Source: an uncultured Holophagae bacterium (GTDB lineage Bacteria; Acidobacteriota; Thermoanaerobaculia; Thermoanaerobaculales; Sulfomarinibacteraceae). From it: a stretch of 64,000 nt of DNA. Positions within the stretch are counted from its first letter, which is position 1; each line of letters begins with the position of its first letter. The notes below the pieces were generated by a model. It searched no databases, had not been told where the DNA came from, and saw nothing but the letters and a program-made list of their open reading frames with translations. Where the stretch lies: positions 138,828-202,827 of the forward strand of contig CAVQBD010000002.1 of the NCBI GenBank assembly GCA_963710645.1, written 5' to 3'. Below are positions 4-62,179 of the stretch, piece by piece. The translations under genes and the position numbers were made by a program.

Positions 4-4864
<4,861 letters not shown>

Positions 4865-4874
4865 TCGGTCACTG

Positions 4875-4916
4875 GTGAACGGTGAATAGTGAATAGTGAA
4901 TAGTGAATAGTGAATA
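4875..4916. repeat. Heptamer tandem array, GTGAATA x5 plus one degenerate unit
   Basis: Read directly from the DNA. It starts 11 nt after the TAG stop at 4862-4864. Confidence 0.95.
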
Positions 4917-4975
4917 GGGGGCAAGGGGGTAGGGGGCAGCCGAAAAAACGGTACAGGTCGCGGTGCGATGGAATC

Positions 4976-5089: not shown

Positions 5090-5142
5090 ATCTTGGATCT
5101 TGGATCTTGCATCTTGCATCTTGGATCTTAGATTTTGGATCT
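5090..5142. repeat. Heptamer tandem array, ATCTTGG/ATCTTGC, about 7.5 units
   Basis: Read directly from the DNA. It ends about 60 nt upstream of ATG 5202. Confidence 0.95.
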
Positions 5143-5201: not shown

Positions 5202-5417
5202 ATGGAGATTCCAGGCAAGGTCTCCCTGTACTGTCCGCTGGTGGATGCAAAGGGCACTGCGGCAACCCTGGTCGCGGTCTCCCCACAGGGCTACTATCAG
5301 CTCGAGGTGATGGTCCAAGGCAATCGTCACACCATGTTCGTGCCGGTGGGTCATGCCGCGCTGTACTTCTCAGAACCCGAGATCGAACCCGACGAAGATC
5401 TCGAAATCGAACGTTGA
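5202..5417 (+). CDS. Small hypothetical protein (71 aa)
   Basis: ATG 5202 lies 6 nt after an AAGGAG RBS (5191-5196). It is the in-frame inner part of ORF 5079..5417, whose upstream part runs through ATCTTGG repeats. No family was recognised. Confidence 0.55.
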   Translation: MEIPGKVSLYCPLVDAKGTAATLVAVSPQGYYQLEVMVQGNRHTMFVPVGHAALYFSEPEIEPDEDLEIER

Positions 5418-5478
5418 ACGTCGCAGAACGCGGGATGAAGCGCGAATAATCGGGGGTCATGCTGCTGTTAAAGGTGGC

Positions 5479-6633
5479 GTGACCCAATTGGAAGATCTCC
5501 GCGATGTACTGGGCGAATCTCTGCCCGCGGTGCTGGAAAACCTCTCCGAGGCCGTGCTGATCCTGGATCACCAGCGCACGCTCAGGTTCGTCAATGAACG
5601 CGCCCGGCGTCTGCTCGGCTATGGCGAGTCCGAACCGCTGGGCGGCAGGTGTCGACTCACGACCCGTGGCATCGACTGCGAGAATGCGTGCCCCTTGACC
5701 TTCGCCCTGGAGAGTCGTCTGGACCGCGTCGACGATTTTGAAACGGTCTATCACACCCGGGACGGAAGAGCAGTTGCGCTCAAGGTGACGGTCATTCCGC
5801 TGAATGACTCCGATGGTGGCTTCCGAGGGGCTGTGGAGATCCTGAGGCCCACCGAGCCGGATCCCGGGGTGCTCCTTTCCGGACGAAGCGATGCGGCGCT
5901 GGCACTGCGTGACCGGGTCGCCGAGTTGGCCACATCCGATGCTCACCTGATGTTGGTCGGCGCGTCACCGGCGTGTTCGGACGTGGCGAGGACCATCCAC
6001 CGCTACTCCGGTGTGGCGGAGTCACTCTTCCATTGCTGGAATGGCTCCTGGAGTGGCATTCCGCCGTGGCCTCCGGGAACCATGTTTGCCGCCTCCGATG
6101 GCGAGGCGGGACCGTTGTCGGAAACCCCTCCCGAGGGATGGCGGGTCATCGTCGGTGTTGACGAACCGCCGGATGTGCACGGTGATGATTTGTTGCCGCA
6201 CGAGGTGGTGGAAATTCCGACGGCGAAAGACCTCCGGGTTGATATCCCGCTGATAGTGTCCGCTTGGTTGCGCGAGCTTGCTCCTTCGCTAAAAATCCAC
6301 CCGCTTGCCCTCGATAAGTTGACCAGGGTGGCTCAGGACGTGGGATTCGAACGATTTCAGAGGGTGCTGCATGGGGCGGTGGGAGCCGCCGGGGACCAAT
6401 TAGAAGAGCACCACATCCCCGAAGACGGATATCGGGCAGCCTATGTTGACGAGTTGTTGGCGCAGGACGATCCGTTGTCAGCCCTCGAGCGACGGTTGCT
6501 CTTCGAGGTGCTGGAACGCAGTGGCTGGCGGATGCAGGAGGCGGCCGATCGGCTCGGCATCTCCCGGGTGACCCTGTGGCGGAAACTCAAGGACCACGGC
6601 ATCGAACGGCCGAACAACCACTGTGAGAAGTGA
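5479..6633 (+). CDS. PAS-domain, degenerate sigma-54-activator-like protein with Fis-type HTH
   Basis: Part of ORF 5353..6633; the start is uncertain (GTG 5479 proposed). It has a Cys-rich PAS (GGRCRLTTRGIDCENACPL). The AAA+-like core has no Walker A (LVGASPACSD in its place) and no GAFTGA. The C-terminal HTH reads MQEAADRLGISRVTLWRKLK. Confidence 0.7.
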   Translation: MTQLEDLRDVLGESLPAVLENLSEAVLILDHQRTLRFVNERARRLLGYGESEPLGGRCRLTTRGIDCENACPLTFALESRLDRVDDFETVYHTRDGRAVALKVTVIPLNDSDGGFRGAVEILRPTEPDPGVLLSGRSDAALALRDRVAELATSDAHLMLVGASPACSDVARTIHRYSGVAESLFHCWNGSWSGIPPWPPGTMFAASDGEAGPLSETPPEGWRVIVGVDEPPDVHGDDLLPHEVVEIPTAKDLRVDIPLIVSAWLRELAPSLKIHPLALDKLTRVAQDVGFERFQRVLHGAVGAAGDQLEEHHIPEDGYRAAYVDELLAQDDPLSALERRLLFEVLERSGWRMQEAADRLGISRVTLWRKLKDHGIERPNNHCEK

Positions 6634-13988: not shown

Positions 13989-13994
13989 CCCCCC

Positions 13995-14010
13995 GGCACA
14001 CCGATTGCAT
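13995..14010 (+). promoter_or_regulatory. Sigma-54 (-24/-12) promoter candidate for the small Cys protein and NuoEFG-like/GltD-HdrD operon
   Basis: CGGCACACCGATTGCA. GG at 13996-13997 and GC at 14008-14009 give canonical 12-nt register against TGGCAC-N5-TTGCW. It lies about 25 nt upstream of ATG 14034. Confidence 0.6.
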
Positions 14011-27848: not shown

Positions 27849-28017
27849 GGATGGCCCGCGGCCAGCGGTTCATGGCTTGCGACCGGAGCAAACTGCGATC
27901 CCCGACGGTCGTCTTCCATTGCAACTTGCGACGGTGCCGCTCGTGGATTGCCGGGAAGTCAGCCCGAAATATTGATTTTAAGAGACTTGTGCATAATTTC
28001 ACGAAATCTAGGAAAAT

Positions 28018-28033
28018 GGCACGCCGGTTGCTG
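28018..28033 (+). promoter_or_regulatory. Sigma-54 (-24/-12) promoter candidate for the beta-propeller and hmc-like operon
   Basis: TGGCACGCCGGTTGCT matches the consensus at every conserved position (GG 28019-28020, GC 28031-28032). It lies about 60 nt upstream of ATG 28092, with an AT-rich tract just upstream. Confidence 0.7.
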
Positions 28034-41808: not shown

Positions 41809-44800
41809 CTACCTATTCACCACCTCGATCAACGGACACGGACGTTCGTCGGTGCCCTCGTGGGCTTGTCCGTGAATTGCCTCGATCGCACGGGCGCGGG
41901 TCGGAAAGACCGACTCCCGGCCAATGGTCGCGAGACAGCCGGTCCGTTCGAGAATGTCGAAAATGTCATCCTTGAGACCGCTGATTGAAACCTGGTAACC
42001 GGCGCTTCGAAGATCCAGTACCAGGTCACCAAGGTCCTCCGCCGCGATCTCATCCACGGTCGAAAGACCGTGACACGCGAGCAGGATGTGGCGCGTCTCG
42101 GGGCGCGCGGCGACACGCGCCTTGATCTCGTGCGCGACGAAATCCACGGTCGCAAAATTGAGAGGCCCGTCGATCCGCATGGCTGCGATAAATCGGCAGA
42201 CGGCGAGACCATAGTGGTCGGCGTTGCGGAGCGATCCGTCCGCATGCATCGAAATCTCCACGACCCGAGGCAGGAGCGGCTGCATCGGGCAGTGCTCCTC
42301 AGAGTGTCCACGATGGGCCTCGGCGTACATGCTGGCCACTGCAGAGTCCGCGGTCGGGAAGATATTGTCCAACCCGATTTCGTCGGCAACACCCGACCGT
42401 CCGAGCTCCTCGAAAACGTGATCTCTGAAGCTGCAGAACGACACCGAAAAAGCCGCCTTTCTCAGGCGTTCCACCAACTCGCGAAGCCTTTGTGCGTCTT
42501 CCGAGCCGTGTCGTTCAAGGGTGTGAGCGACAAACAAAATGTGAGTCACCTCAAGCCGATTCTTGACCCACTTGGTGAGCTCCAACTCCAGAGCCGCCGG
42601 GTTGGCGAGAATCAACGGTCCATCGAAGCGAAGGGCCGCGATGTGAGAACACAGTCCAAGGCCGTGCCGTCGAGCTTCGCGCAAACTCCCGTCAGGATGC
42701 AAGGAAAGTTCGGTGACACGGGGCGCCATGGGCTGGAACGGGCAGTTCGGCTCGCTCGATTCGGCGTGCGCCTGCGAGCACAGGGCGGCGATCGCTGCGA
42801 ATTGGGTGGGGAAGCGGTGATTTGAGCCGATGACCTGGTCAGTGTCAATCCGGTCGAGGACCTCCAGGACTTCATCCCGGAAGCCCGAGAACGACACGCC
42901 CAAACCCTGCTCGCGGAGACGGTTGACGACCTGAACGAGCTTCTGCGCCCCGGACGGATCGACCTCCGCAATACCGTGGGCGACGAATATGACCTGTCGC
43001 AGCTCCGATCTCCCCTCCAATTTCAGGAGGATCTCCTGCTCGAGGAAATCCGTGTTGGCATAGGTGAGCGGATCGTCGAAGCGGAGGACTGCCATGTGCC
43101 GGCACAACTGGAGGTCATGGCGTACAGCATCGCGAAGCGAACCGTCGGGATGGACCGAGAGTTCCGCGAGTCGGGGCATCACCGATCGATAGGGGCAACC
43201 CGGCTCGGGATCAGTGTGGGCCGAGGCGTAGATCGCAGCGATGGCCTGGGCCTGAGTGGGGAACTGGTGGTCCCCGCCGAGGACATCGTAGAGGTGGGAC
43301 CGTTTGAGCACGTCGACGACCTGGTCCTTGAGGCCGCAGAAAGAGACGTCGTACTTCGCCTCCCGCAAGTGCTCCACCAGGTGGCGCAACATTTCCTCAC
43401 CCGAGGCGTCGACCTCGTTGATGCCCTCGGCCACGACCAGGACGTGCTTGAGATCCGGCATCTTGGAGACCCGATCGAGCACCTCGTCCTCGAGGTAGGA
43501 GGCGTTGGCGAAGTTCAGCGGGCCGTCGAACCGTATTGCGGCCAGGTACCGGCATTGCTCGAGGCCATGCCTCCTGGCGTCCTTCAAACCGCCCTCCGAA
43601 TGGGGGGCCAATACGGCCACGCTGGGACGCATCGTACGGAAGAGGTACCCGCCAAGCGACAGGGTCACCCCGATCAGGATCCCCCACTCGAGGTGCGGCG
43701 CAAGAATGAGAGTGCACACGAAGGTCACGACCGACACGAAACCGTCGAATGGTTGGGTCCGCCAAGCATGGACAAAACCACTCACGTTGAGCAGGCCGAA
43801 TACGGCCATCATGATGATCGACGCCAGCACCGCCTGTGGCAGGTTGTAGAGCATGGGTGAGAAAAAGAGCAGGACGATCGCGACGATCAACCCGGAGAAG
43901 ACGTTGGACATGCCGGTGCGCGCTCCCGCCTGCAGGTTGACGGCCGAGCGCGAGAACGATCCCGAGACGGCATAGCTCTGACCCATGCAGCCAACGATGT
44001 TTGCCAACCCCTGACCGATCAGCTCCTGGTTCGGGTCGAGCTTCTGCTTTGTCTTGGCGGCCATCGCTTTGGCGATCGAGATCGCTTCCATGAATCCGAG
44101 GATGGAGATGATGATCGCTGCGGCGATGAGCTTGGGTATGACCTGGAAGTCGATGACGGGCGGACTGATTGGCGGGAGGCCGGCGGGGATTGTCCCGACC
44201 ACAGCCCCTCCTCCTGTCATCATCAAATTCTCTTGATCGATGGCGACGTTGCCCACCTTGATCCGCCATGTGCCAGGTTCCACCTCGAGATCCTGGGCCG
44301 ACTCACCCCGCACGATGAATTGGGGCTCACCCTTTGCATCGACGGCGCGCTGGAAGCGGTAGCCTCTCAGCTCGGTTCGAACATCCGACACGTGGTGTTT
44401 GAGTTCCTCGATCCGAATGTCGATCAAGCCTGCCATTTGGTGAAGGGCCAGCGTCCTGCGCTCGAAATCGCCCGCCACAGCCGGACCACCGCCTGACCCA
44501 AACCCCGTCGCCGAGCGCAGCGCGTGGCAACCCATGCACTGAGTGACGAGATCGCTGTTCTGGTCGTCGAGGAGGACGTTCCCGGAGGCCCTCGCTTCCT
44601 CCAAGAGTCGCTCCTCGAGCACGGCGTCGTTGAACTCAGTGATCTGCTCTTTCACTTTTTCGGATTCGATCTGGTTGCCCTGGACGTTCTCGTTCCTTTC
44701 AAATCCGAGCGTTGCGGCAAGCGCGGTGGTTACGACAACTGCCACCAGCACATTCGGGATCCGGGGGTTGAGTCGCCTCAACGTGATCATGATTGCGAAC

Positions 44801-45414
44801 GACAAGATTGCCATCGCGAGCGTTGGAAGGTGGGTGTAGTGGAGGGCGGCCTCGAAGACCCGGTAGATGGTCCCGTAGTGATGTTCCGCCTTGTCTACAT
44901 AGACGCCGAAGATTTTCGACAATTGGGACGTTGCGATGATCAGGGCGGCGGCATTGGTGAAGCCGTTGACCACCGGATGGGAGAGGAAATTGACAATCAG
45001 GCCGAGGCGAAGGATGCCAAGGGCGAGCTGGAAAACGCCCACCATCAACGCCAGCAAAATGGCGTAGGCGATGTACTGCTGGCCGCCTGCAGTGGCGAGT
45101 GGCTCGAGTGCGGCGGCGGTCATCAGCGACACCACCGCAACAGGTCCCGTCGCCAACTGCCGGCTCGAGCCGAAGAGGTTGGCTACGATGGGCGGCAGAA
45201 AGGCCGCATAGAGCCCGTAGTAGGCCGGCAGCCCGGCCAGCTGCGCATACGCCATCGACTGGGGAACGAGAACGAGGGCTACCGTGAGCCCTGCGATGAA
45301 GTCACTTCTGAGAGTCGAGGCGTCATAGCCCTGGAACCATGTGAGAAATGGGAAAAGGCGTCGCAGGATGGTCATATCCCAGATACTCCAAGCTTTCGGA
45401 GTATACGACAGCAC
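41809..45414 (-). CDS. SulP/SLC26-family anion transporter with an inserted soluble loop and four tandem C-terminal STAS domains
   Basis: SulP signature region (LRSDFIAGLTVALVLVPQSMAYAQLAGLP...). There is a roughly 165-aa non-membrane insertion (residues about 239-404) before the VVGTIPAGLPP motif. Four roughly 150-aa STAS-like repeats occupy residues about 600-1201. Confidence 0.85.
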   Translation of the reverse strand: MLSYTPKAWSIWDMTILRRLFPFLTWFQGYDASTLRSDFIAGLTVALVLVPQSMAYAQLAGLPAYYGLYAAFLPPIVANLFGSSRQLATGPVAVVSLMTAAALEPLATAGGQQYIAYAILLALMVGVFQLALGILRLGLIVNFLSHPVVNGFTNAAALIIATSQLSKIFGVYVDKAEHHYGTIYRVFEAALHYTHLPTLAMAILSFAIMITLRRLNPRIPNVLVAVVVTTALAATLGFERNENVQGNQIESEKVKEQITEFNDAVLEERLLEEARASGNVLLDDQNSDLVTQCMGCHALRSATGFGSGGGPAVAGDFERRTLALHQMAGLIDIRIEELKHHVSDVRTELRGYRFQRAVDAKGEPQFIVRGESAQDLEVEPGTWRIKVGNVAIDQENLMMTGGGAVVGTIPAGLPPISPPVIDFQVIPKLIAAAIIISILGFMEAISIAKAMAAKTKQKLDPNQELIGQGLANIVGCMGQSYAVSGSFSRSAVNLQAGARTGMSNVFSGLIVAIVLLFFSPMLYNLPQAVLASIIMMAVFGLLNVSGFVHAWRTQPFDGFVSVVTFVCTLILAPHLEWGILIGVTLSLGGYLFRTMRPSVAVLAPHSEGGLKDARRHGLEQCRYLAAIRFDGPLNFANASYLEDEVLDRVSKMPDLKHVLVVAEGINEVDASGEEMLRHLVEHLREAKYDVSFCGLKDQVVDVLKRSHLYDVLGGDHQFPTQAQAIAAIYASAHTDPEPGCPYRSVMPRLAELSVHPDGSLRDAVRHDLQLCRHMAVLRFDDPLTYANTDFLEQEILLKLEGRSELRQVIFVAHGIAEVDPSGAQKLVQVVNRLREQGLGVSFSGFRDEVLEVLDRIDTDQVIGSNHRFPTQFAAIAALCSQAHAESSEPNCPFQPMAPRVTELSLHPDGSLREARRHGLGLCSHIAALRFDGPLILANPAALELELTKWVKNRLEVTHILFVAHTLERHGSEDAQRLRELVERLRKAAFSVSFCSFRDHVFEELGRSGVADEIGLDNIFPTADSAVASMYAEAHRGHSEEHCPMQPLLPRVVEISMHADGSLRNADHYGLAVCRFIAAMRIDGPLNFATVDFVAHEIKARVAARPETRHILLACHGLSTVDEIAAEDLGDLVLDLRSAGYQVSISGLKDDIFDILERTGCLATIGRESVFPTRARAIEAIHGQAHEGTDERPCPLIEVVNR

Positions 45415-53937: not shown

Positions 53938-54635
53938 CCGATGTGCGTGGCTCGAAGGTTGTAGTCCGGAAAATCCAGAGGCTCGGGACGACCGCCCTGG
54001 AGGTATGGACAAACGATGTCGTCGATGCTGAGCGATTTGGTGAGATGGCCCTCCGCGCGCGGCTCGAGAACGCCGCCCTGAAGGTCCTCGATCCGGAGGC
54101 CTTCGATGGGGTGAGCAGAGGACTGGAGTCGATGGTCGCTGCGCAGGCCACGTGGTGTGCTGCGACCGAAGCGGCCATCGTCTCGGCACTTTCCGCCGAT
54201 GGCGTGCAGTATGTGGCGATCCAGCGCAGGGCCAAGCACGTCGCGGGGGTGTGGCGAAAAATGAAAGAGAAACACCTTGCCCTTGAAGACGTGCAGGATT
54301 TGTTCGCCTTTCGGATCATCGTTCCAGGGCAGGATGAATGCTATCTGGCTCTTGCCACCGTCCATCGTTTGTTCGACCCGGAGCCGTTTCGATTCAAGGA
54401 CTACATAGCAAATCCCAAGGCGAACGGCTACCAGAGCCTCCACACCAGTGTCCGTGATCGGGGCGGTTTTGCATTCGAGATCCAAATCCGAACCGTCGAC
54501 ATGCACCGTGCGGCTGAGGAGGGTGCTGCCGCCCATTGGCGTTACCGAGCCGGCAAATCCGTGCGCAACAGGGCATCGGCGAGGTCTGCGGGTCTGGGTG
54601 GTCTTGGTGCTCTGATCAGGCGTCGGCGTGGGTGA
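53934..54635 (+). CDS. RelA/SpoT-domain small alarmone synthetase-like protein
   Basis: Synthetase-domain motifs RAKHVAGVWRKMKEK, DLFAFRIIV, YIANPKANGYQSLHTSV, FEIQIRTVDMH and AAHWRYR. GTG 53934 overlaps the upstream TGA. Confidence 0.8.
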   Translation: MTDVRGSKVVVRKIQRLGTTALEVWTNDVVDAERFGEMALRARLENAALKVLDPEAFDGVSRGLESMVAAQATWCAATEAAIVSALSADGVQYVAIQRRAKHVAGVWRKMKEKHLALEDVQDLFAFRIIVPGQDECYLALATVHRLFDPEPFRFKDYIANPKANGYQSLHTSVRDRGGFAFEIQIRTVDMHRAAEEGAAAHWRYRAGKSVRNRASARSAGLGGLGALIRRRRG

Positions 54636-56049
54636 CGGGCGTCAGGGACGGGGTGGCTGGTAGGGTTACGGTGAAGGTCGTGCCCTTGCCCTGCTCCGTG
54701 GTGAAGGTGACGTCCCCGCCATGTTCTTCGGCGACCTTCTGAACCACCAGAAGACCGATGCCGGTGCCCTCGCTGCCCTTGGTCGAGAAAAAGTCCTCGA
54801 AGACCCGGCTGTTCATCTCGTCGGGAATCCCGGCGCCATCGTCCTCCACCTCGAGGATCATGGAGCCCTTGATGTCGGTGGTGCAGCGAAGGGTGATGGT
54901 GTGGTGTTCCTTCGCGTCTGACGGATCGAAACGACAGGCGTCGATGGCATTGGCGACCAGGTTGGTGAGCATGTTGTGGAGTCCGCCGGGATCGAAGGTG
55001 CCATAGACCGGCGGGTCACAGAGTTCGGTTTCCAGGGTGATGCCCTCTTCGGCCATGCGGTCGGCAAAGAGATCGCGGACCTCCATCAGAATGGTGTTCG
55101 GGCAGACCCCGTCCTTGAAATCCGGGGTCCGATCCTTGGAACAATAGAGCAGATCCATGACGATCCTCGAGACCCGGTGGACGTTTCGTTCGACCATTTC
55201 CCACCCTTCAGCAATGGTCTCGCGATCATCGGTTTCGAGCCCTGTGTTGACGACGAAAATGCCGCCCTCGAGCCCCATCAAAATATTCTTGATTCGATGT
55301 GCCATACCGGCTACGGCACGTCCCATGAGGGCCAACTGGCGTTGCAGCGCCTTGACCTCGGTGACGTCGGTGAACACCTCCATGACGGCGCTGATCTCGC
55401 CATCGTCGTCCACGATGGGCATTGTGTGCACCACGGCATTGACCCGTCTGTGATCCCGCGTCACGAGAATCTCTTCGTCGGAGTGGATCAGGCCGTCGGC
55501 AAAGGTCAGGTCCACCACGCAGTTTGGACACTTGCTCGTGCGTTTCTTGCACACCTCGTAACAGAAAGAACGGTTGGTCGCCCCGAACTCCTCGCGGTAC
55601 ATGGCGTTGGCCTCGAGGATTCGATGGTCCCGGTCGATGACGCAGATAAAGCATGGGACGGAGGTGAAGAGGCGTTCGAAACCACGTCGAGTTTGATTGA
55701 GTTCACGTTTGAGATCGTTGAAGGGTGGCGCGTCGACGACTCTCGGTCGCCGGGTGAAGACCCACACGCCGAGGCTTGCCAGGCAGAAGAAGAGGGTCGC
55801 CGCGATGACGATGGGAGACAGGAATCGAACTCCACCCGCCACCGCAACGCACAGGATCGAGATGACCGAAAAATACACCGCGACGATGCGCCGCCGCTGA
55901 ATGATCGGGTCGTTAACCTTCCTGGTGACCTTCGGGCCTGCCGGCGGGACGATGTCGTTGGGTGGAGTTCTGGTGTGGTGATGGGCCGGGGCACCATTGC
56001 GCTGATCTTGAGAGGGTGTTGTCCCGTCAGGTATGTCCATCGACGCCAC
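54616..56049 (-). CDS. Membrane sensor histidine kinase with a Cys-rich PAS domain
   Basis: Two TM segments, a PAS with SFCYEVCKKRTSKCPNCVV, H-box AGMAHRIKNIL, N-box LTNLVANAIDA, and G-boxes DDGAGIP and GTGIGLLVV. Confidence 0.85.
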   Translation of the reverse strand: MASMDIPDGTTPSQDQRNGAPAHHHTRTPPNDIVPPAGPKVTRKVNDPIIQRRRIVAVYFSVISILCVAVAGGVRFLSPIVIAATLFFCLASLGVWVFTRRPRVVDAPPFNDLKRELNQTRRGFERLFTSVPCFICVIDRDHRILEANAMYREEFGATNRSFCYEVCKKRTSKCPNCVVDLTFADGLIHSDEEILVTRDHRRVNAVVHTMPIVDDDGEISAVMEVFTDVTEVKALQRQLALMGRAVAGMAHRIKNILMGLEGGIFVVNTGLETDDRETIAEGWEMVERNVHRVSRIVMDLLYCSKDRTPDFKDGVCPNTILMEVRDLFADRMAEEGITLETELCDPPVYGTFDPGGLHNMLTNLVANAIDACRFDPSDAKEHHTITLRCTTDIKGSMILEVEDDGAGIPDEMNSRVFEDFFSTKGSEGTGIGLLVVQKVAEEHGGDVTFTTEQGKGTTFTVTLPATPSLTPVTHADA

Positions 56050-56361: not shown

Positions 56362-57720
56362 ATGGATAACAGTGATTTCGATCCGGCACAGATCATTCTT
56401 GACAGCGTCGCCGACGGGGTCTTCACCGTCGATCGCCAGTGGCGCATCAGCTCGTTCAACCGGGCAGCGGAAGAGATTACAGGCGTGCCCCGGGAAGAAG
56501 CTCTGGGACAACGCTGCTGCGATGTGTTTCGGGCCAGCATCTGTGAATCCGGTTGCGCCCTCAGACACACCCTCGAAACCGGGGAAAATGTCGTCAACAA
56601 AAAGGTTTTCATTGTCGATACCGACGGTACCAAACTCCCGGTGAGCGTTTCGACGGCGATCCTCAGGGACGCCGATGGGCAACCCAAGGGTGGTGTCGAG
56701 ACCTTTCGCGATCTCAGCCACGTCGAGCAGCTGCGCAAGGAACTCGAGGGCCGTTTCTCGCTCGGCGACATCATTGGCCGCAGTCGTCCCATGAGGGACC
56801 TTTTCGAAGTGCTTCCGGCGATCGCGGCCAGCGAGAGCACCGTCGTCGTCCACGGCGCCAGCGGGACAGGCAAGGAGCTCTTCGCCCGTGCGATCCACCA
56901 GCTGTCACCGAGACGGGACAAACGGTTTGTTGCCATCAACTGTGGTGCTCTTCCGGACACTCTGCTTGAAAACGAACTCTTCGGCCACGTGGCCGGCGCC
57001 TTCACCGACGCCCGTCGTGACAGGCCGGGTCGTTTCGCCCATGCGGAAGGGGGCACCATCTTCTTGGATGAGATCGGGGATATTTCCCAGGCGATGCAGG
57101 TTCGTCTGCTGCGGGTTCTCCAGGAGCACGTCTACGAGCCTCTCGGCTCGGTGGAGCCGGTGACAGCCGACGTCCGGGTCATCGTCGCCACTCACCGCGA
57201 TCTCGCAAGCCTCGTTGAGGATGGAGTTTTCAGGGAAGACCTCTACTATCGCATCAACGTGATGAAGCTGGAGCTGCCGGCATTGAAAGAGCGCCGGGAG
57301 GACATTCCGCTGCTGGTGGATCATTTTGTCCAGCGATTCAACCGGCTTCAGGACAAGGACGTCGTCGGAGTGTCGGACGAGGTTCTCAGCCTGCTCATGA
57401 CATATTCGTTCCCAGGCAACGCCCGGGAGTTGGAAAACGTCATCGAGCACGCCTTCGTGCTCTGCAATGAAGGCTGCATCGAACTCAGACACCTGCCACC
57501 TGAAATCAGTCAGGGATCCGAAGTTCCTCCGGTGGAATCCCGGGGGGGAATGACTCTCCGTGAGATGGAAGCCCTGCAAATATCGCTTGCACTCCACCGC
57601 CATGGCGGAAACCGGAAGGCGGCGGCCGATGAGCTTGGGATCCACCCGAGCACCCTCTTCCGGAAACTCAAGGATCTGGAGATCGAGCCGCCGGAGCGCG
57701 ACGGTCGGAATAGTCAGTAG
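56362..57720 (+). CDS. Sigma-54-dependent transcriptional activator with an N-terminal Cys-rich PAS domain
   Basis: ATG 56362 is residue 463 of listed ORF 54976..57720; the upstream 462 codons are the antisense shadow of the kinase gene. PAS with GQRCCDVFRASICESGCAL, Walker A GASGTGKE, GAFTDA loop and a C-terminal Fis-type HTH. Confidence 0.9.
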   Translation: MDNSDFDPAQIILDSVADGVFTVDRQWRISSFNRAAEEITGVPREEALGQRCCDVFRASICESGCALRHTLETGENVVNKKVFIVDTDGTKLPVSVSTAILRDADGQPKGGVETFRDLSHVEQLRKELEGRFSLGDIIGRSRPMRDLFEVLPAIAASESTVVVHGASGTGKELFARAIHQLSPRRDKRFVAINCGALPDTLLENELFGHVAGAFTDARRDRPGRFAHAEGGTIFLDEIGDISQAMQVRLLRVLQEHVYEPLGSVEPVTADVRVIVATHRDLASLVEDGVFREDLYYRINVMKLELPALKERREDIPLLVDHFVQRFNRLQDKDVVGVSDEVLSLLMTYSFPGNARELENVIEHAFVLCNEGCIELRHLPPEISQGSEVPPVESRGGMTLREMEALQISLALHRHGGNRKAAADELGIHPSTLFRKLKDLEIEPPERDGRNSQ

Positions 57721-58302: not shown

Positions 58303-59109
58303 TTGTGCTGCAAGGTGGGCATGACCCGGCAGAACTACTACAAGCAGAGGCGGCGGCGAAGACGGAGAGAAGTCGACGAGAGTCTGATCATCGCTCTGGT
58401 CAGGCGGGAGCGACAGCAGCAGCCGCGGCTTGGTTGTAGGAAGCTCCATCGGCATTTGCGTCAGCAGTTTCGAGACGCCGGTATCCAGGTCGGTAGAGAC
58501 CGGATGTTTGAGGTTCTTCGTCATCACGGGATGCTGGTCAGACCGTTGCCGAAGAAACCCCGCACTACGTTTTCGGGGCACTCTTTGCCGGTGTATAGGA
58601 ATCTCATCTCTGAGCTTGAGGCCACGGCTCCAAACCAGATCTGGGTCAGCGACGTGACCTACATCCGGACGTGGGGGGGGTTTGAGTACCTCACTCTGAT
58701 CATGGACCTGCACTCCCACAAGATCGTCGGCTATCACTGTGGAGAAAGCCTCGACACCAAGACTTCCATGAAAGCGTTGGATCAGGCGATTGCGGATCTG
58801 CCAGACGACAGGTATCCAATTCACCATTCAGATCGAGGAAGCCAGTACTGTAGCCACAAGTATGTCGAACGCCTGAATGGTCGCTACTTGCCGGTGAGCA
58901 TGACCGAGTTGAATCACTGTGCCGAAAACTCAACTGCAGAGAGACTCAACGGCATCCTCAAACAGGAGTATGGCCTCGGAAGAACTTTCCTCAGCCGGCA
59001 GCAGGTACGACGCGCTGTCGATGAAGCCGTCTGGCTCTACAACCACCGCCGACCCCACATGACCCTCGATTACCAATACCCTGCCAAGGTCCATGAACTG
59101 GCCGCCTGA
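58303..59109 (+). CDS. IS3-family transposase OrfB (rve/DDE integrase core)
   Basis: IWVSDVTYI (D), HHSDRGSQY (D) and AENSTAERLNGILKQE (E). The -1 frame is open from the slippery site at 58228 through to this ORF. Confidence 0.9.
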   Translation: MCCKVGMTRQNYYKQRRRRRRREVDESLIIALVRRERQQQPRLGCRKLHRHLRQQFRDAGIQVGRDRMFEVLRHHGMLVRPLPKKPRTTFSGHSLPVYRNLISELEATAPNQIWVSDVTYIRTWGGFEYLTLIMDLHSHKIVGYHCGESLDTKTSMKALDQAIADLPDDRYPIHHSDRGSQYCSHKYVERLNGRYLPVSMTELNHCAENSTAERLNGILKQEYGLGRTFLSRQQVRRAVDEAVWLYNHRRPHMTLDYQYPAKVHELAA

Positions 59110-60390: not shown

Positions 60391-60406
60391 TGGCACAGCG
60401 GTTGCA
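60391..60406 (+). promoter_or_regulatory. Sigma-54 (-24/-12) promoter candidate for yeiH-like and dsrAB
   Basis: TGGCACAGCGGTTGCA (GG 60392-60393, GC 60404-60405). It lies about 47 nt upstream of ATG 60453. Confidence 0.7.
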
Positions 60407-62105: not shown

Positions 62106-62179
62106 GGAGTTTGTGTCGGGTGGGCCATCGTTGGTCTCCCCGCCGAGAAAATTTCTGAAATCAATGGAAAGGAGTGGCC

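Follow-up and report, generated by a model that had tools for sequence, protein, structure and literature searches.

A Cysteine-Rich PAS Regulator with a Degenerate AAA+ Domain and a Conserved Small Partner Gene in Sulfomarinibacteraceae

Sigma-54 activators are the textbook case of ATP-driven transcription control, and the known exceptions have lost only the loop that contacts sigma-54. The locus described here raises the question of what a protein does when the sensor and DNA-binding domains of such an activator are kept and the motor is not. The window, meaning the whole stretch analyzed, is 64,000 nucleotides of contig CAVQBD010000002.1 (assembly GCA_963710645.1) from an uncultured Holophagae bacterium (Sulfomarinibacteraceae). 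The gene in question, called the target below, encodes a PAS domain, a remnant of an AAA+ domain, and a Fis-type helix-turn-helix (HTH). The favored explanation is that it represents a lineage-specific family descended from an OrpR-like PAS-AAA+-HTH sigma-54 activator, which would now act without sigma-54. Taken as a whole, this explanation is held with moderate confidence, slightly above even. Family figures come from a word-indexed search that found 345 homologs. Details are taken from the best 120 of the 345, and these 120 close homologs plus 13 divergent representatives make up the 133 family sequences. The target gene and its parts are as follows.

5479..6633, + strand: target gene (PAS, AAA+ remnant, AAA lid, and Fis-type HTH); open reading frame (ORF) with a GTG start, 384 amino acids

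5521..5850, + strand: PAS sensor domain, residues 15-124; Pfam matches PAS_9, PAS_4, and PAS, a PAS fold in the AlphaFold2 (AF2) model, and Foldseek LOV/PAS matches

5650..5691, + strand: cysteine triad C58-x8-C67-x3-C71 (RCRLTTRGIDCENAC), a probable iron-sulfur (Fe-S) ligand set; invariant in 133/133 family sequences

5884..6228, + strand: stripped AAA+ alpha/beta core, residues 136-250, with five strands kept; hhalign mapping, AF2 secondary structure, and profile matches

5959..5982, + strand: degenerate Walker A position GASPACSD, aligned to GESGTGKE of intact relatives

6229..6414, + strand: AAA+ lid-like helical domain, residues 251-312; DhaR profile at residues 244-378, ZraR chain at residues 236-368 (E 3e-11)

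6472..6612, + strand: Fis-type HTH_8, residues 332-378, with recognition helix GISRVTLWRK; Pfam

Pfam places PAS_9 at residues 24-123 (E 4.8e-10) and HTH_8 at residues 334-372 (E 3.3e-14), and nothing at residues ~125-330. The target has no match to PF00158 or PF14532 (Pfam, E ≤ 0.1). The two intact activators checked match PF00158 with E values of 1.4e-72 (window position 3476) and 1.7e-74 (a relative in locus L062). A preliminary description, made from the sequence alone, had assigned the target the PAS, AAA+-like, and Fis-HTH layout of sigma-54 activators. The PAS domain and the HTH stand, but the full AAA+ layout does not, the center being a remnant approximately 60-70 residues short relative to intact relatives. 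The strings LVGASPACSD and GRCRLTTRGIDCENACPL quoted in that description are both present in the translation. A longer ORF from an ATG at 5353 is an unlikely alternative because it would run into the upstream 71-amino-acid gene (5202..5417).

The origin of the remnant is visible from several comparisons. A BLASTP alignment of the target with the intact activator at 56362 runs colinearly from end to end (24% identity, E 1e-14) and leaves large gaps in the center. The hhalign alignment between the family profile and 14 intact acidobacterial relatives is also colinear (probability 100, E 2.8e-44). NCBIfam profiles give a weak match to the AAA+ start (residues 133-184) and a clear match of DhaR to the lid and HTH (residues 244-378, E 8.5e-14). 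A profile of the 120 family members, searched against Protein Data Bank (PDB) sequences, matches ZraR (E 3e-11), FleQ, and NtrX. The AlphaFold model of the target has a mean predicted local distance difference test (pLDDT) score of 82.8, and its best Foldseek matches are NtrX (5m7n) and ZraR (1ojl), with E values of 2e-9 to 6e-8. Descent from a sigma-54 activator is supported by these profile and model comparisons.

The hhalign alignment also locates the losses. Walker A (GESGTGKE) is G-E/D-x-P-A-C-x-D in the family and GASPACSD in the target. The position of the Walker A lysine is occupied by R, A, S, T, or V, and by lysine in 0/133 family sequences. ELFGHxxGAFTGA is replaced by sLFxxWxGSW(D/E), Walker B (GGTxFLDEI) by PGTM(Y/F)AxGD, and sensor II (PGNxREL) by GFExL. 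The arginine-finger region FRxDLYYRL is deleted. Three blocks of ~18-24 residues each, ~60-70 in total, are missing: the strand-2 region, a helix with the pre-sensor-I hairpin, and the arginine-finger helix. The model of the target retains five strands (156-160, 184-186, 201-205, 222-227, and 241-245) and the lid helices. The AF2 model and hhalign disagree on whether the segment LFH is strand 2 or what remains of ELFGH, but the functional loop is gone in both.

A regular-expression (regex) scan of the 133 family sequences for Walker A and GAFTGA gave no match at a homologous position. Its three matches are all non-homologous and lie in a PAS strand or linker. Of the 14 intact controls, all show Walker A and 13 show a GAFTGA-like pattern; the remaining one, the window's own activator, has GAFTDA. 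The string GAFT occurs in 0/133 family sequences versus 14/14 intact controls. The preliminary description had reported the loss of Walker A and GAFTGA, and the comparison agrees with it. The homologous positions are replaced, there is no intact copy elsewhere in the target, and neither the alignment nor the regex scan found a shifted yet intact version. By alignment, all motifs for ATP hydrolysis and sigma-54 contact are lost, so the target almost certainly cannot activate sigma-54 RNA polymerase. On the same comparisons, the AAA+ motor has decayed to a compact non-catalytic scaffold. Separately, FleQ-like binding of cyclic di-GMP by the target was considered and rejected, as the LFRS arginine is missing in the alignment.

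The degenerate form is that of a whole family. The best 120 homologs are 351-418 amino acids long and 53-100% identical to the target, and none has PF00158. An exhaustive HMMER search of 1.84 billion cluster representatives, with the central 139 residues as query, found 20 clusters, all of them full-length proteins of 353-388 amino acids or shorter fragments, with no canonical activator (0). The most divergent representatives (39-53% identity) carry the same degenerate motifs, and no form intermediate between intact and degenerate was seen among them. Among the matches listed, species genomes with the family are only Acidobacteriota metagenome-assembled genomes (MAGs) labeled Thermoanaerobaculia, Thermoanaerobaculales, Candidatus Sulfomarinibacter(aceae), or “Holophagae”. 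A few bins with the family bear other taxon labels and are probably mislabeled.

Selection on the target was estimated against its closest locus (L001). The ratio of nonsynonymous to synonymous substitution rates (dN/dS) is 0.09 overall, with 0.07 for the PAS domain, 0.14 for the remnant, 0.05 for the lid, and 0.03 for the HTH. Mean column identity over the 120 sequences is 0.88 in the HTH and 0.78 in the PAS domain, the two highest values, against a minimum of 0.59 in the remnant. Even there, W197-P-P-G, W221, P247, D255, and W263 are invariant and T201 is nearly so. These values indicate a real gene under purifying selection over its whole length, in which no parts are more constrained than the PAS cysteine triad and the Fis-type HTH. 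The missing catalytic motifs and internal deletions could be taken as marks of a decaying pseudogene or an annotation artefact. That reading is refuted, with next to no probability left to it, by the low dN/dS, by a frame that is intact in >120 homologs of constant length, and by the conserved gene order and upstream element described below.

The PAS cysteines are the most telling part of the sensor. C58, C67, and C71 are invariant in 120/120 close homologs and 13/13 divergent representatives, far beyond chance, and R57, D66, and P72 are likewise invariant (120/120, 13/13). The preliminary description had named non-conservation of these cysteines in orthologs as evidence that would count against it; the triad is kept in 133/133 family sequences. 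Its proposal of a cysteine-rich PAS domain as a redox or Fe-S-type sensor gains support from the spacing C-x8-C-x3-C, which equals that of OrpR. In the OrpR PAS domain of Desulfovibrio vulgaris Hildenborough, a member of a sensor class described in 2021, C52, C61, and C65 are required for redox sensing (PMC8359166). The domain was shown spectroscopically to hold a [4Fe-4S]2+ cluster, which mild oxidation turns into [3Fe-4S]1+, and a conserved D/E at Cys+2 in OrpR homologs has been proposed as the fourth ligand (PMC8359166). By analogy, the target PAS domain is inferred to bind a [4Fe-4S] or related cluster through C58, C67, and C71, and the invariant D66 or the near-invariant E68 may serve as fourth ligand. 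The loop at residues 59-69 is the only internal stretch of the model with pLDDT < 50, which is merely compatible with a cofactor loop modeled without its cofactor. C166, at the Walker A position, was also considered as a fourth Fe-S ligand and set aside as not essential. It is present in 113/120 close homologs and only 7/13 divergent representatives.

The target lies next to a small gene with which it is almost always found. The neighboring features are as follows.

3476..4864, + strand: intact NtrC-type response regulator (REC, AAA+, and HTH), upstream neighbor of the target; PF00158 E 1.4e-72, GESGTGKE, GAFTGA

5202..5417, + strand: 71-amino-acid partner gene; product a five-stranded, SH3-like beta protein, acidic at its tail, with C11 and H43 invariant

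Across ~58 loci the order is CCA/poly(A) polymerase, NAD-dependent DNA ligase, NtrC-type regulator, 71-amino-acid ORF, and target, followed by an OmpR-type regulator, Skp, a sulfatase-like protein, RecA, and a DsbA-like protein. This is a conserved housekeeping block (cca, ligA, and recA). Counts of upstream context refer to the 56 loci with upstream DNA. The 71-amino-acid gene precedes the target in 54 of the 56. The NtrC-type regulator is upstream of the pair in 50, often 33-60 bp before the small gene. The small gene is an obligate partner gene of the target. The pair persists without an adjacent regulator in loci L029, L044, L052, and L054. In L044 and L052, the small gene has a canonical TTGACA-N18-TAGAGT promoter in front of it.

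For the small protein, 163 homologs were found. Nearly all of the 120 listed are 70-73 amino acids long, none of the 120 has a Pfam domain, and among the matches listed, all those named by a source are from Acidobacteria. Their alignment shows an acidic tail and invariant C11, K17, and H43. The AF2 model is a five-stranded beta protein (pLDDT 87), and its fold matches to SH3, Tudor, KOW, and NdhS-like barrels are weak (E ≥ 0.1).

Two features of the block upstream of the pair can be added here. The 675-amino-acid ORF at 1461..3488 was at one point read as a histidine kinase. Pfam identifies it as NAD-dependent DNA ligase and the ORF before it as CCA/poly(A) polymerase, so there is no cognate kinase operon. 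The ligase ORF (1461-3488) overlaps the start of the NtrC-type regulator by 13 nucleotides. This overlap suggests joint transcription of cca, ligA, and the regulator, an unusual setting for a sigma-54 activator. The spacer between the regulator and the small gene contains tandem 7-mers, GTGAATA x5 (4882-4917) and ATCTTGG x7.6 (5090-5142). Elsewhere the same spacer ranges from 33 to ~700 bp with unrelated repeats (L003, L014, and L024), and it looks like a hot spot for repeat expansion.

A short element separates the small gene from the target.

5442..5470, + strand: two-block element GCGAATAA-N16-TGTTA, 8 nucleotides before the target GTG

The form GCGAATAA-N15/16-TGTTA is present in 49/56 related loci, 7-8 nucleotides before a conserved (G/A)GCGTG start, and divergent loci have GGAATG-N18-GTT(A/C) at the same position. 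The spacer between the blocks varies in sequence and is constant in length. Each locus has exactly one copy, which stays with the target even where this is 600 nucleotides from the small gene. In the window, 1 copy is observed versus 0.02 expected. GGAAT-N18-19-GTT is the consensus of extracytoplasmic function (ECF) sigma factors of the SigH/SigR/SigE type (PMC10012870). The element fits this pattern, a resemblance to a consensus that comes from Actinobacteria. Its two blocks and fixed spacing suggest that it is probably the target's own stress-type (ECF-like) promoter, with an operator as another possibility. Because the element is so close to the start codon, the target mRNA would be leaderless or nearly so. 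No conserved sigma-54 GG-N10-GC element was found upstream of the small gene or the target (55 loci). The spacer has no Rfam match (E ≤ 1), and a simple scan of it gave no canonical sigma-70 promoter.

The favored explanation joins these parts as follows. The PAS domain would report redox or oxidant state. As no ATPase is left to gate, the signal would have to alter DNA binding, oligomeric state, or partner binding. The target would then be a conventional sigma-54-independent DNA-binding regulator, in the simplest case a repressor or occluder and alternatively an activator of sigma-70 or ECF promoters, and it probably works with the co-transcribed 71-amino-acid SH3-like protein.

Several points weigh against this explanation. 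The cofactor, DNA-target, and partner roles of the target are all predicted. The acidic OrpR-type residue at Cys+2 is replaced by L60 in the target family (118/120 Leu), and cluster ligation may therefore differ from that in OrpR. DNA binding by OrpR is independent of its redox state. A redox switch on DNA binding would thus be a new output, or the signal may act instead on partner binding or oligomerization. The AAA+ domain is complete in the known relatives without GAFTGA, and at least for Rhodobacter capsulatus NtrC nucleotide binding is important, so the analogy with them is loose. The Actinobacterial source of the ECF consensus belongs here as well.

The output could differ from the favored one in three ways. 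In one, the remnant and lid dock on the AAA+ ring of the NtrC-type regulator at 3476..4864, and the mixed oligomer poisons or gates it according to the PAS signal. The proximity of this regulator in most loci is what such an anti-activator would predict, as are the selection on the remnant and its invariant Trp/Pro surface-type motifs. Hetero-oligomeric pairs of bacterial enhancer-binding proteins (bEBPs) exist, such as HrpR/HrpS. However, the parts of the ring interface are among those deleted (the arginine-finger helix, and the helix with the pre-sensor-I hairpin), the pair occurs without the regulator in the four loci named above, and the adjacency may be plain synteny within the housekeeping block. 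Mixed oligomers are on balance unlikely. About as doubtful is passive competition, the idea behind the DNA-binding competitor of the preliminary description: the target would have retained the DNA specificity of an intact paralog and would block that paralog's upstream activating sequences. Intact PAS-AAA+-HTH relatives of other Acidobacteriota (L059-L078) do have the identical recognition helix, GISRVTLWRK. Those relatives are from other genomes, and among the matches listed 0/20 come from a MAG that also has the degenerate family, which is weak evidence. Within the window, the two intact activators have recognition helices that differ from the target's, and no second SRVTLWRK helix was found. 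A conserved sigma-54 promoter is missing from the surroundings of both the target and the intact relatives. A DNA-binding competitor or anti-activator is thus one of several possibilities.

The third way would assign the dead AAA+ remnant a role as an interaction platform for the SH3-like partner. C11 or H43 of the partner would possibly complete the PAS Fe-S site, the cluster state would control assembly of the pair, and the pair would silence or redirect transcription, possibly by capping the neighboring NtrC-type activator. The WPPG and Pro-rich linker motifs would then be candidate contact sites for the partner. This scheme is given a low probability; if it were true, a pseudo-enzyme of bEBP descent would serve here as an anti-activator under Fe-S control. 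A separate doubt concerns the cofactor, as the triad could be a Zn site or a thiol/disulfide or persulfide switch. Invariant cysteines number only three, L60 stands where OrpR-type proteins have an acidic residue at Cys+2, bEBPs include proteins with sensor domains that release metal (PexR, with its Zn/Fe GAF domain, is one), and the organism has sulfur-cycling genes. Nevertheless, the spacing and the local sequence R-C-x8-C-E-x2-C-P match the OrpR class with its spectroscopic [4Fe-4S], and D66 or E68 could supply the fourth ligand. A site other than Fe-S is considered quite improbable.

Two further regulators in the window have cysteine-rich PAS domains. They are as follows.

56362..57720, + strand: intact OrpR-like PAS-AAA+-HTH activator; GASGTGKE, and a GAFTDA loop at about 56995

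56515..56556, + strand: cysteine triad of the intact activator (CCDVFRASICESGC), numbering identical to OrpR

54616..56049, - strand: PAS histidine kinase, four-cysteine variant

55519..55563, - strand: kinase cysteine cluster C-x3-C-x6-C-x2-C; last three cysteines in the OrpR-type triad columns (MAFFT alignment)

The preliminary description had seen a cysteine-rich PAS motif common to the three regulators, and this was confirmed in that the cysteines are at aligned positions and are conserved in the relatives of each. The strings it quoted, CCDVFRASICESGCAL for the activator (56362..57720) and CYEVCKKRTSKCPNC for the kinase (54616..56049, - strand), were found in those proteins. The PAS domain of the activator has C52, C53, D54, C61, and C65, the OrpR signature with identical numbering. 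Its metagenomic orthologs (L081-L094, 53-95% identity) have the triad in 14/14 and an acidic Cys+2 in 12/14. GAFTDA is kept in 13/14 of these orthologs, with GAFTGA in L094, and is found in L095 and L110 as well. Given this conservation, the alignments mark GAFTDA as a trait of the subfamily rather than an error. Just downstream of the activator lies a transposase or integrase gene (rve core domain, 58303-59109). In the kinase, all four cysteines are kept in the three available relatives (P0241, P0242, and L081), and the cluster would be a complete four-cysteine ligand set. A homolog search with the kinase PAS domain found two proteins only.

Genes for DsrMK-like, HmcBC/DsrOP-like, SulP, TauE, and DsrA-like proteins are also present in the window. 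Gene context and promoter scans found nothing linking the target to dsr or hmc promoters, which the preliminary description had suggested as its sites of action. The sigma-54 consensus TGGCAC-N5-TTGCW has perfect matches at 28017-28032 and 60391-60406 and a match with one mismatch at 13994-14009. At two mismatches, the number of sites in the window is not above chance. The site at 60391 is inside the 5’ end of the ORF preceding the DsrA-like gene at 62174. An attempt to derive a DNA target from the intact relatives that share the recognition helix was abandoned, as their 17-kb loci have no consistent sigma-54 promoter and no enhancer could be derived. The 1201-amino-acid ORF at 41809-45414 (- strand) has three STAS stretches along with two Sulfate_transp stretches, and represents either two SulP permeases fused in tandem or a pair of genes read as one.

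Among known systems, OrpR shares with the target the order of a PAS domain, an AAA+-derived domain, and a Fis HTH, the triad C-x8-C-x3-C at nearly the same residue numbers, and an anaerobic, sulfur-cycling host. The AAA+ domain of OrpR works, its PAS domain gates the ATPase, and sigma-54 promoters are activated. The target, in contrast, has no ATPase and has Leu at Cys+2, and its output must differ. The true OrpR-like protein of the window is the activator at 56362, not the target. The closest intact relatives found are the acidobacterial PAS-AAA+-HTH activators of L059-L078 (for example, in Thermoanaerobaculum aquaticum), which share the PAS motif RC-x8-C-E-x2-CP and the recognition helix with the target. 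They differ in having a full PF00158 domain and no small partner gene. A class-V aminotransferase gene, of the cysteine-desulfurase-like fold family, is upstream in 20/20 of these loci, at a distance of 3 bp (L062:6817-9320) to ~450 bp.

NifL, FleN, PspA, HrpV, and HrpR/HrpS resemble the target in concept, as sensor proteins that modulate a sigma-54 activator without activating by themselves. To our knowledge, none of NifL, FleN, PspA, and HrpV has been described as a degenerate bEBP with its own HTH. The parts of the target are thus known ones, namely an OrpR-type PAS domain, bEBP descent, and relatives without GAFTGA. No account was found in the literature of their combination, a truncated AAA+ remnant that is free of motifs and under selection, with an obligate SH3-like partner and a probable dedicated promoter, in one acidobacterial class.

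VpsR, NtrC of Rhodobacter and Caulobacter, NtrX, and TyrR are also of bEBP descent and have lost sigma-54 contact while keeping a Fis-type HTH, and NtrX is the best structural match of the target (Foldseek). Relatives of this kind act at sigma-70 promoters, and by analogy the target may do so. Their sensor is a REC or ACT domain, whereas that of the target is a cysteine PAS domain. Their AAA+ domain is full length with Walker A and B, and nucleotide binding or oligomerization matters. The target family has lost Walker A, Walker B, the arginine-finger region, and sensor II. It goes one step beyond these relatives, with the whole motor stripped and yet the sensor, scaffold, and DNA-binding domain selected, in a class of environmentally abundant, uncultured, sulfur-cycling Acidobacteria. 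The SH3-like partner and the probable dedicated promoter are concrete experimental handles. If the PAS domain holds an Fe-S cluster, the sensing mode of OrpR would extend past the Deltaproteobacteria and be coupled to a different output.

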